A stretch of 64,000 bases of DNA. Origin: Candidatus Contendobacter sp. GTDB taxonomy: Bacteria > Pseudomonadota > Gammaproteobacteria > Competibacterales > Competibacteraceae. The position numbers were made by a program. Numbering within the stretch: position 1 is the first letter of the stretch; each line of letters opens with the position of its first letter. Below, in pieces: positions 59,201-62,200 of this stretch. Location: contig JARSSO010000038.1 in NCBI GenBank assembly GCA_029624765.1, positions 1,364 to 65,363 on the forward strand, given 5' to 3'.

Positions 59201-62200
59201 GCGCGGGCGTTGGCCGACCGGATTCACACCGGCGCCGTCGCGCTGCCCCGGCCGGCCCTGGACTGCCTGGACCTGCTTGAAACCATTCTGGTCTACCGCT
59301 TGCCGCACCTATCCCGCCCGGAGATCGAAGCCATGCTCGGATTCACCCACGCCGAACTCAAGCAAAGCCGCTTCTATCAGGAAGTCACCGCTGAAAGCCG
59401 CCAGGAAGGCCGCCAGGAAGGCCGTCAGGAAGGCCGCCAGGAAGAGAGCGTGATGCTGGTGTTGCGCCTGTTGCGGCGACGCCTGGGGCCGTTGCCCGCC
59501 GCCCAGGAGCAACGGATTCGCCGGCTCTCCCTGGCCTAAACCGAGGCGCTGGGCCAGGGCGCCGCTGACGGCGTCGACCACCAGGTGCGGACTGCCCAGG
59601 TGATCCTTGATCAACCGATACGTCACGCCGCCCTTGACCATCAAGTCGGGCGCGTTCCCGCCGGCGTACACGAAGCGGCTGACGACTTGATGGTTGCCGT
59701 CCAGCTCGGCAATGGGACGCAGGCCGTCCTGATAGAGGAAGCCTTGAACGAGAACGCCATCGACCCGCTTGCCGATCCGGCGGTTGCGACCGTCGATCAG
59801 GTAGTCGAGGGTTTTGCCATCGGGCAGGGCAACATGGCGCAGGTTGCCGAGCACGTCGTAGGCGTAGCTCGTGGTCTGGCCGCTGACGGTTTGGGTCTTG
59901 AGTTCGCCGTTGGCGGTGTGGGTGTAGTTCAGTTCAGGGGATTTGCGGGGATGTCGGGCACGTCCGGTGCCCGACCTACTTGGCTACCCGGCTACCCGGC
60001 TGTGGTTAATTGGTCTTGTATTCCATAGGCTCTTTCCATGGAATTTCTCTTATTCCGAAAACCCAATTACCGAAAAAAGTTCTACCGACACGGGAAGTTA
60101 TACGCCAATGTATCGGTGAAACAGAGAGGAGTTCAAAGCGTAATAAACCACCCCATGGATCCTCTAAATAGGGCATTAATGGAAGTGGCATAGCATCTGG
60201 AGCAGAAGCTCTATTTTTATAAATTATCTGCATCTGCGCTGCTGAAACAGTAATAGGTACGTCGCTTTCACGAATACCACTTGCATTAATATCTTCCAAT
60301 CGGATTTTACTCAATCTGTCACTCCAATCACTAAGATTAATATGGGAACTTGTGCCATAACTTGCATCAGACAAGAAACGCAGCGTATTTACTAAAAGGA
60401 AGATACTGATAATAATTAATGATAGAATTATTACCCAAGGCAAGAATATCTTAGTAGTCATGTCGATTTTTAATTTTTCTTTCTGCTATGAGATCTGGCT
60501 TGGTTGAGAAATGACCTTGGCGTCACAGTGTTGGGCACAGGAGTTAGATTATTTACATCAAAAGAAACGTCTCCACAATTATTATAGATAACGCTGTATT
60601 GTGGTGGGTTTATCCTAATCTCTACCATTTTACGAAGTATGTTAAGGTCTTCTTCTGGTGATTGATTAATTCTATAGAATTCATCTCCTCTAGCAGCCCC
60701 TTCAATGGTTTCCGAATAACTTAGTTCTGCCTTTCCTTCCGTTGATAATGTGCTCAACAAATCGCTCATAGAGTTACCACCTGGACCATTGTAGTTATTG
60801 GCTTGATAATCTAACTTCATTACGCCTCCGGGGATATCAACTGCTGTCCATACATGTCCAGCAAGCCCACTACTGCTACCTCCAATGTAACTATCCAATC
60901 CGGTTGGATCCCTCCAATTGACCGGATCATTCTGGACATAGCCGTACAGATTCGCATCCCCACCCGCGAACAGGATCGGGTCCTTGGCGGTCCAGCGTCC
61001 CGTTTCGGGATCATAGTCCCGCGCGCCAAAGCGCACCAACCCGGTGTCTTTATCGTAGAGGCCGCCGACGAAGCCGAACGGTTGGAAGCCAGGGTTGGTA
61101 TCCAGGATCACCCGGCCCCAGACATCGTAGTCCAGGCGTTGGACGATCGTGCCGCTGGCGGCATCGAGCACCAGGCGCGGACCGCCGAGATGGTCCTTGA
61201 TCAGCCGATAGGATTGGCCGCCCTTGATCAGATAATCGGGCGCGTTCCCGCCGGCGTACACGAACCGGCTGACGATCTGGTTGTTGCCGTCCAGCTCGGC
61301 GATGGGACGCAGGCCGTCCTGATAGAGGAAGCCTTGAACGAGAACGCCATCAACCCGCTTGCCGATCCGGCGGTTGCGACCGTCGATCAGGTAGTCGAGG
61401 GTTTTGCCATCGGGCAGGGCAACATGGCGCAGGTTGCCGAGCACGTCGTAGGCGTAGCTCGTGGTCTGGCCGCTGACGGTTTGGGTCTTGAGTTCGCCGT
61501 TGGCGGTGTGGGTGTAGTTCAGTTCAGGGGATTTGCGGGGATGTCGGACACGTCCGGTGCCCGACCTACCGGGCTGTGCTACCAGTTGGCAATATCGTCG
61601 CCTAAGCCGTACTCATCTATTCCATTTGGCCCAACAGAATATAGATCGTATTCGCTATTTCCATATTTAGCAGGGTAAAAATAAATATAATTATTTTCCC
61701 AAGGGTCTATATATAAGTAAGGCCTATTAGAATATGGCCCCTGCCAATTTTCCAAGCTATCATGATTTTTAAATAAATAAATCAATCCCTCAGTTGTTGT
61801 TGGGAAACGCCCAATATCTTTTTTAAACTCTAATAGCGATTGTTCTAATTTTTCTATCTGGAGTTTTGCAACCCTTGTTTTTTCTGTTCTAGCTGGTACT
61901 TGATACCCCCAGAGGAAAAAACAAAAAACGATTCCATAAAAAATGGAAGAAATTAATTTTAAATAAGTTTTCATTATTCACATCGCCTGTAAGCTTCTTT
62001 AGACAAATTCATGGATTTTCTAAATATCTTATCATGTCTACCTTGTTCTATACTAAGCAAGTCCTCGATATTGGTCAATGCTCTCTCTAATATTGTTTGA
62101 TTAGAGTGTTGAAACTCATGAGCAAGAGTTTCTAATAAAAACACTCTACGCTCAGGTGTTAATTCCTTCTCAAATTGCCTACTTACAATAACATCGCCCG

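Follow-up and report, generated by a model that had tools for sequence, protein, structure and literature searches.

We analysed a 64,000 bp stretch of a Candidatus Contendobacter genome (contig JARSSO010000038.1, positions 1,364 to 65,363; hereafter the window) and identified a short minus-strand gene directly after the C-terminal tip of an Rhs fragment. The gene encodes a 131 amino acid protein with the globular domain of GspG, the major pseudopilin of type II secretion systems (T2SS), and lacks the prepilin leader of that family. We estimate a probability of roughly 75%, judging from sequence, that this protein is the cognate immunity protein of the Rhs tip, that it acts in the periplasm, and that the two genes form an orphan toxin/immunity cassette. 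The data directly support the identity of the domain, the loss of the leader, the tight coupling of the two genes, repeated occurrence of the pair (also after a full-length Rhs gene), the action of purifying selection on each gene and the mobility of the AT-rich module. From these we infer a periplasmic location, neutralization by binding, a peptidase activity of the tip and the kind of target that this toxin may have.

The partner gene and the Rhs tip

The cassette (cassette A) spans 61579-62998 overall and consists of an Rhs core block, a tip with the motif HEFQH and the GspG-domain gene. Its features are as follows, with the basis of each in parentheses.

61579-61974, minus strand: partner gene, a 131 amino acid leaderless GspG-domain protein and candidate periplasmic immunity protein (open reading frame (ORF), Pfam T2SSG match, structural model, and ratio of nonsynonymous to synonymous substitution rates, dN/dS)
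61582-61890, minus strand: T2SSG globular domain, codons 29-131 (Pfam and PDB matches, model, dN/dS)
61891-61974, minus strand: predicted Sec signal peptide, codons 1-28, with MKTYLK, a hydrophobic core and VPA↓RTE (alignment with canonical GspGs, homologues, break in the model)
61974-62351, minus strand: Rhs C-terminal tip, 125 amino acids from VNWVDTKGL to the stop, a putative minimal zinc metallopeptidase toxin (invariant residues, dN/dS, weak model neighbours)
62106-62120, minus strand: HEFQH motif of the tip (read from the sequence; H-E-x-x-H is invariant in homologues)
62325-62339, minus strand: core/tip boundary motif D-T-K-G-L, usual form D-P-x-G-L within PxxxxDPxGL (translations)
62352-62998, minus strand: Rhs core 3′ homology block (repeat families D1-D3, cassette-start alignment, TIGR03696 match at E = 7.5e-24)

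An earlier note on this DNA described an AT-rich ORF of 131 codons translationally coupled to an HExxH tip, and both the ORF and its coupling were found as described. The junction on the minus strand reads TAATG, so the tip stop (TAA, 61976-61974) and the partner start (ATG, 61974-61972) have one base in common. The GC content is 0.31-0.37 over the tip and partner and 0.62-0.70 around them. The GspG signature that the note had recognized by eye is borne out by a match to Pfam T2SSG (PF08334) that extends over profile positions 10-108 of 108 (E = 3e-21; 75.9 bits, cut-off 21). Eight solved GspG chains also match the partner by sequence (E = 2e-8 to 3e-6), and its identity to the best structural matches among GspGs is 28-34%. 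Codons 29-131 comprise the C-terminal part of the pilin helix, the beta-sheet and the C-terminal G-D-D-I-x-N-W loop, so that the D-D-I-x-N-W region is shared with GspG.

The AlphaFold model of the partner, based on an alignment of 53 sequences, has a predicted local distance difference test score (pLDDT) of 90. In a Foldseek search of PDB with this model, the best 16 matches are all major pseudopilins (EpsG, PulG, XcpT; PDB 3fu1, 4lw9, 1t92, 2kep). Template modelling (TM) scores on target length are 0.51-0.79 for these 16 and 0.73-0.79 for the best 12, with root-mean-square deviations of mostly 2.3-3.8 Å and of 2.3-3.7 Å, respectively. Type IV pilins rank after the major pseudopilins and only at E > 0.7. 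Compared with homologues, the whole gene has a dN/dS of 0.13-0.29. The mature part is more constrained (0.09-0.20, apart from one nearly identical pair), whereas codons 1-28 evolve almost neutrally (pN/pS of ~0.5-0.8).

Despite the shared fold, the partner differs from GspG in having no prepilin leader, N-methylation site, Glu5, continuous hydrophobic N-terminal helix or gsp operon. As had been noted before, the prepilin motif G-F-T-L-I-E is absent from the partner ORF, and we found it in none of the six frames of the window. There is no match to the Pfam N_methyl domain. The score against the NCBIfam GspG equivalog (TIGR01710) is 65.7 bits, under the cut-off of 88.85, and the alignment begins only at profile position 33. 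The T2SSG hidden Markov model (HMM), run on the six-frame translation of the window, matched the partner ORF alone and thus no second T2SSG copy. None of 20 large ORFs inspected in the window is a gspD, gspE, gspF or minor-pseudopilin gene; they are housekeeping genes (sucA, lpd, a GH94 phosphorylase, tkt, gap, pgk, tsp, glmS, dnaK/J, surE and sohB). This check was non-exhaustive, and it agrees with the earlier statement that no other gsp gene is present. No gsp genes were seen beside the homologous loci L001, L004, L009 and L025 either.

Canonical GspG is held in the inner membrane by its leader together with the hydrophobic first half of the long helix, and these later make up the filament core. 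In the alignment, codons 1-28 of the partner stand opposite the prepilin leader of canonical GspG and the N-terminal portion of its pilin helix. This segment looks like a cleavable Sec signal peptide. The N-termini of partner homologues have an n-h-c layout with small residues at -3 and -1 (V/I-x-A sites), and the model has a low-confidence break between helix 2-21 and the conserved helix 28-54. In the L009 and P0002 homologues the hydrophobic core has 12 residues and is followed by REE(V/I)LA↓KTE. A core of this length is too short to span the membrane and so fits a Sec signal peptide, with no anchor. The earlier proposal of a membrane-tethered protein is therefore not upheld by the closest homologues. 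Distant relatives are anchored by a C-terminal transmembrane helix, which the window partner lacks. Given the resemblance of its N-terminus to a cleavable Sec signal peptide, the mature partner is probably a free, soluble periplasmic GspG head, and it can be read as equivalent to the truncated constructs used in GspG crystallography. We also considered a lipoprotein and rejected it, as no lipobox occurs in the window copy or in the close homologues inspected.

The alignments reveal one further difference in the globular domain. The leaderless clade has G-x-N (GPNG in the window, codons 115-121) where canonical GspGs have GPDG. The Asp of the canonical motif is a ligand of the essential Ca2+ site in GspG structures, so this site may be altered in the leaderless clade.

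The tip proper is AT-rich, comprises ~115 amino acids and carries the HEFQH motif. Eight residues (H78, E79, H82, N84, R90, H106, E119 and C124) are invariant in 8 tip sequences, down to 24% identity, and the dN/dS is 0.08-0.26, apart from one nearly identical pair. The tip is likely a small zinc metallopeptidase, judging from these residues and from its model. In the low-confidence model, a helix and three strands precede the HExxH helix, after which come two more helices; this order, together with the length, resembles the minimal zincins of ~110 amino acids (selecase, the minigluzincins jannalysin and abylysin, SprT/Wss1-type), although all matches to them are below significance and the pLDDT is 47.7. 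The best PDB neighbours of this model in Foldseek are minimal zincins (E = 7e-3 to 0.2, TM ~0.45-0.52). The weak neighbours as a whole (E = 7e-3 to ~6) are selecase, jannalysin/abylysin, IrrE, the VgrG2b C-terminal domain (6h56), SPRTN and Wss1, and the best Pfam match is SprT-like at E = 0.044, also below significance. Candidates for the third metal ligand are the invariant H106, E119 and C124. The invariant C-terminal Cys could be a metal ligand or a latency switch. Inside the tip, ~75 nt upstream of the partner ATG, we noted TTGACC-17-TAGTAT (62050-62078, minus strand), a hint of a possible internal promoter.

Recurrence of the pair and the wider domain family

The same tip and partner pair was found in six other contexts at three levels of divergence (L001-L003, L004, L005-L008, L009, L022 and L025), so that GspG-like genes next to rhs genes, which the earlier note had proposed to survey, are recurrent. 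The first three contexts (L001-L003, L004 and L005-L008) contain orphan tips that run from VNWxDPWGL and are 77-80% identical to the window tip, with partners that are 73-85% identical. In L009, a metagenome-assembled genome of Candidatus Contendobacter, a full-length teneurin-like Rhs ends in the same tip; PKD, TTR, FN-plug and NHL domains precede its YD shell. Its partner is 70% identical and overlaps the Rhs stop by 4 nt, orphan cassettes follow, and the window cassette shares 80.8% DNA identity with this locus over 1373 nt. The pairs in L022 and L025 are more distant. L022 has a tip with 43% identity (HEYQH), then a partner with 46% identity. L025 has a tip with 24% identity (HEYQH) and, after a 4-nt overlap, a partner with 38% identity, within an orphan array beside integrases and toxin-antitoxin genes.

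Background GC in the hosts of these loci varies between 0.35 and 0.64, that of the module only between 0.31 and 0.39, which indicates that the module moves between hosts. Recurrence, purifying selection on both genes and mobility are what a cognate toxin/immunity pair would be expected to show. Together with the tight coupling, the recurrence and the selection on both genes give good support to the suggestion, made before, that the gene occupies an Rhs immunity slot.

A metagenome scan with the tip alignment returned two loci only. The partner alignment, used to scan genomes, retrieved one family member (L009) and nine canonical GspGs (L010-L018), the latter not Rhs-linked. All canonical GspGs recovered (L010-L018, L029 and L030) have GFTLIE-type leaders and are located in gsp-type contexts or away from Rhs genes. 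One further locus, L028 (73-1327), contains an Rhs fragment with a tip that is 37% identical (HEYQHSND), followed by a 195 amino acid protein with a signal peptide. This protein has no T2SSG match and no Pfam match.

The partner belongs to a much larger set of proteins. An exhaustive HMMER search with it recovered 5003 representatives (clusters at 50% identity) at E ≤ 1e-3, and we scored features on the best 150 of these 5003. A prepilin motif was found in 5-7 of them, while about 100 have an N-terminal hydrophobic segment and no prepilin motif. Many have a signal-peptide or lipobox-like N-terminus, 17 have a transmembrane-like C-terminal tail, and 19 have tandem domains. Genomic context was seen for 14 leaderless T2SSG relatives, seven of which lie directly after an HExxH Rhs tip. 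An eighth, P0159 (L032, 1239-2166), precedes an Imm32 immunity-family gene, without a toxin between the two, in what looks like a small island of immunity genes, and this supports the immunity interpretation. Leaderless GspG-domain proteins are thus a large group, of which toxin-linked members are a substantial part and not the whole.

A candidate immunity protein and its alternatives

We propose that the window carries an orphan cassette of three parts, namely the Rhs-core 3′ block, the AT-rich HEFQH tip and the translationally coupled partner gene. In the partner, a Sec signal peptide would have taken the place of the leader and of the hydrophobic assembly helix of a GspG-type pseudopilin. 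With leader and helix gone, the partner should be unable to join a pseudopilus, and it would be neither processed by prepilin peptidase nor built into the filament. It would be exported to the periplasm as a free domain and would bind and block the tip there, and the tip would act on a periplasmic or envelope target. Immunity proteins sit where the toxin acts, as is established for amidase, lipase and peptidase effectors of type VI secretion systems (T6SS). From the coupling of an exported GspG head to the tip one would thus predict that the tip hits a target in the envelope or periplasm and that direct binding of the head blocks the tip. The alternative partner in L028 also begins with a signal peptide, which supports a periplasmic site of action. 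Because that partner has no T2SSG match, the pilin fold may be one workable scaffold rather than an obligatory substrate mimic.

Several observations weigh against this interpretation. Six of the 14 sampled leaderless relatives have no recognizable toxin next to them, and P0160 sits between leuD and asd in two metagenomes, also with no toxin; because of these six, the leaderless domain family may have another primary role. The signal-peptide call was made by inspection and hydrophobicity, and the window partner contains a 22-residue uncharged stretch that could serve as a signal anchor. On the toxin side, the tip had no significant match to a curated peptidase or toxin family in Pfam or NCBIfam (including Tox-MPTase and DUF4157), a PDB sequence search with it gave no match, and its model is poor. 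The label "metallopeptidase" is therefore putative, as it is based on the invariant HExxH and weak structural neighbours. Cassette A is an orphan, and its boundary reads DTKGL, compared with DPWGL or DPTGL in every homologous tip and in the two other complete window cassettes; the orphan copy may have lost self-cleavage, or the motif may tolerate change. Five sigma-70-like promoter sites were found against 3.4 expected from shuffled sequence, which is not above chance. Given the orphan state, the DTKGL boundary and this promoter signal, the toxin half of the window cassette may be silent. Moreover, we found no RNA runs containing cassette A.

An unlikely special case of immunity is that the partner is a decoy. 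The substrates of the tip in the periplasm would be a competitor's pseudopilins or type IV pilins, and the partner would be a soluble copy of the substrate that fills the active site. Consistent with this, nothing of the GspG portion exposed to the periplasm is missing from the partner, which retains the C-terminal section of the pilin helix as well as the G-D-D-I-x-N-W loop, and the pairing of the tip family with T2SSG partners persists to 24% tip identity. Toxin and partner would also meet where pilins are exposed before assembly. The L028 pairing of a tip relative with an unrelated signal-peptide protein mildly weakens the idea, as does the low identity of the partner to canonical GspGs (~30-34%), and it is generally known that immunity proteins commonly use unrelated scaffolds. 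A bolder version, which we regard as equally doubtful, is that HE[FY]QH tips in general cut pseudopilins and type IV pilins and that the leaderless GspG proteins scattered by the hundreds in genomes are a standing arsenal of orphan decoys. If true, these tips would disable a competitor's secretion, motility or DNA uptake.

The cassette could also be a decaying relic, a silent displaced remnant of which neither protein is made or needed here, and the orphan state, the lack of a full-length rhs in the window, the DTKGL boundary and the missing RNA runs would all fit. So would its near absence from one related population: in a bioreactor metagenome (X4), cassette A (61518-62436) has 0-6x depth, versus 120-147x for cassette B (59950-60996) and the flank (63537-64000). 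In three activated-sludge metagenomes (X1-X3), by contrast, cassette A has single-copy depth, equal to that of cassette B and the flank. The difference between X4 and X1-X3 is the presence/absence variation expected of orphan cassettes. Both ORFs are also intact with all family-invariant residues, and dN/dS against homologues is 0.1-0.3. In studied systems, as is generally known, bacteria often retain orphan immunity genes for protection, and recombination can place orphan tips on the main gene. We consider a relic improbable.

We think it similarly improbable that the partner is an accessory or export factor, one that chaperones the tip or connects an Rhs of non-T6SS type with the machinery of type II secretion or of a pseudopilus. 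The idea has a precedent in a preprint that reports gspG linkage for 180 Rhs toxins of Xanthomonas and 56 of Ralstonia and infers T2SS export from the presence of gspG beside Rhs genes (bioRxiv 10.1101/2025.05.08.652813). The L009 Rhs is indeed teneurin-like, with no PAAR domain in the part of the gene seen. However, the text of the preprint is silent on the position of gspG and on its prepilin leader, no gsp genes are nearby in the window or in L009, and a protein without leader and hydrophobic helix has no entry into the pseudopilus. The partner also follows the variable tip and travels with it in orphan cassettes that have no Rhs N-terminus, and for this reason it behaves as an immunity gene and not as a family-wide export factor.

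Finally, the possibility that the gene encodes a true pseudopilin, placed beside an Rhs fragment by chance or mis-started and still working in a T2SS, has in its favour the strong T2SSG match and the name "GspG" that databases give to relatives, and it is essentially refuted by the absence of a prepilin motif from every window frame, the score under the equivalog cut-off, the closure of the upstream frame by the tip's stop codon, the same non-pilin N-terminus in homologues, and the leaders and contexts kept by the canonical GspGs recovered.

Relation to known systems and the surrounding array

Orphan toxin/immunity cassettes downstream of rhs genes were described in the polymorphic toxin survey of Zhang et al. 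(2012; PMC3482391). The window cassette resembles those of Enterobacteria and Dickeya in having a core 3′ block, a boundary motif, a low-GC tip, a small coupled gene and a tandem arrangement, and also in the occurrence of the same pair at the end of a full-length Rhs in another genome. It differs in that neither the tip family nor the partner family has been described there. The parent Rhs in L009 is teneurin-like, versus the PAAR/T6SS type of the known systems, and the boundary motif of the window is DTKGL. Pilins, pseudopilins and GspG are never mentioned in Zhang et al. (PMC3482391), and full-text searches of the literature returned no paper describing a GspG, T2SSG or pseudopilin-like immunity protein. 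By sequence, then, we regard the pair as a new candidate toxin/immunity family within a known kind of Rhs system.

A functional parallel is the zinc-metallopeptidase domain of VgrG2b from Pseudomonas aeruginosa, which is toxic in the periplasm and is countered by its cognate immunity protein PA0261 (PMC6899460). Both systems would combine an HExxH effector with an immunity protein, and the VgrG2b domain is among the weak neighbours of the tip model. In contrast to an Rhs shell, VgrG2b is delivered by a T6SS spike; there is no detectable sequence relation, and the immunity proteins show no sign of kinship. The similarity is thus one of apparent logic and not of membership.

The gspG-annotated genes of groups XRhs F VIII and RRhs F II in the Xanthomonas and Ralstonia preprint likewise recur beside non-T6SS Rhs genes. 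Unlike in our interpretation, they are taken there as a sign of T2SS export, and the text gives neither gene position nor N-terminus. We examined gspG at two Ralstonia/Paraburkholderia megaplasmid loci (L029 and L030). Both encode canonical prepilin GspGs that are not Rhs-linked; one is in an annotated T2SS-type cluster, and the other precedes ORFs sized as gspF and gspE.

If our interpretation holds, the cassette extends the Rhs repertoire by an undescribed pair in which a mini-zincin-like HE[FY]QH tip is combined with a leaderless pseudopilin domain. It would also be a case in which a filament subunit has become a free periplasmic binder through the exchange of its leader for a Sec signal. 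A periplasmic immunity protein would predict an envelope target for a very small metallopeptidase. There is also a warning for annotation: genes automatically named "GspG" beside Rhs genes are not safe as secretion markers, given that, at least in the window family, a gene of this name acts like one for immunity and is excluded as a subunit of a pseudopilus. Since a prepilin leader is missing from nearly all of the nearest 150 clusters, exported GspG-domain proteins appear to form a large unstudied group, for which the cassette may be the first functional handle.

Cassette A is part of an array of four head-to-tail copies of the Rhs core 3′ part on the minus strand (59542-63573). The other members are listed below.

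62995-63573, minus strand: upstream Rhs core fragment ending right after DPWGL (…VAK and stop), with no tip (ORF translation, domain search)
60470-61569, minus strand: cassette B, an Rhs core block and an unrelated tip without HExxH (ORFs, TIGR03696, cassette-start alignment)
60006-60461, minus strand: cassette B partner, 151 amino acids, with an N-terminal hydrophobic segment and not T2SSG-like by sequence (HMM, hhalign, PDB)
59542-59979, minus strand: cassette C, an Rhs core block cut off at ~59541 beside a plus-strand DUF2887/DUF4351 gene (repeats, alignment)

The core fragments match Rhs_assc_core (TIGR03696) at E ~1e-23, and we saw no full-length rhs in the window. Each homology block starts directly at the preceding gene's stop codon or no more than ~26 nt beyond it; that of cassette B begins 9 nt after the stop of the cassette A partner. 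In cassette A, the tip ORF covers 61974-62873 and starts with GTG at 62873, and the core homology reaches the stop of the preceding fragment. Across the array, the GC content over each tip and partner is 0.31-0.42, versus 0.62-0.70 around them. In the metagenomic assemblies, a contig joint from 61575 to 63003 fits an array variant without cassette A; its short side is 30 nt, and it may be a repeat artefact.

Cassette B was part of an earlier suggestion, that of a class of modules pairing peptidase toxins with pilin-fold partners. We tested its partner as a GspG relative and ruled this out at the sequence level. The protein has no Pfam or NCBIfam match and no PDB relative by sequence, and the T2SSG HMM missed it even at E ≤ 10. 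In hhalign against T2SSG the probability is 21% with a six-sequence alignment and 2.6% with a 53-sequence alignment. The partner carries a DPWGG string. As it is not GspG-like by sequence and the accompanying tip lacks HExxH, such a class is unsupported.

The array probably continues beyond the window, since metagenome contigs that cover the window end run past 64000 and return to Rhs-core-like sequence (joint from 64000 to 62374). Another rhs copy, possibly the main gene, is probably located just outside. Small minus-strand ORFs at 63583-63997 (GC 0.53-0.57) would occupy the immunity position of that outside copy. A 46-nt stretch that encodes MSTAHLFH... is found at the upstream end of the window array (63540-63585) and, with 93% identity, at the downstream end of the L009 array (8604-8649), which suggests a rearrangement or a common array-boundary element. 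The sigma factor gene directly upstream of the array reads, by inspection, as rpoS.

At the lower boundary of the array (~59541), the Rhs frame of cassette C (59309-59854, minus strand) runs into the opposite strand of the DUF2887/DUF4351 gene. This gene (59156-59539, plus strand) abuts cassette C and has a (QEGR)x4 repeat.

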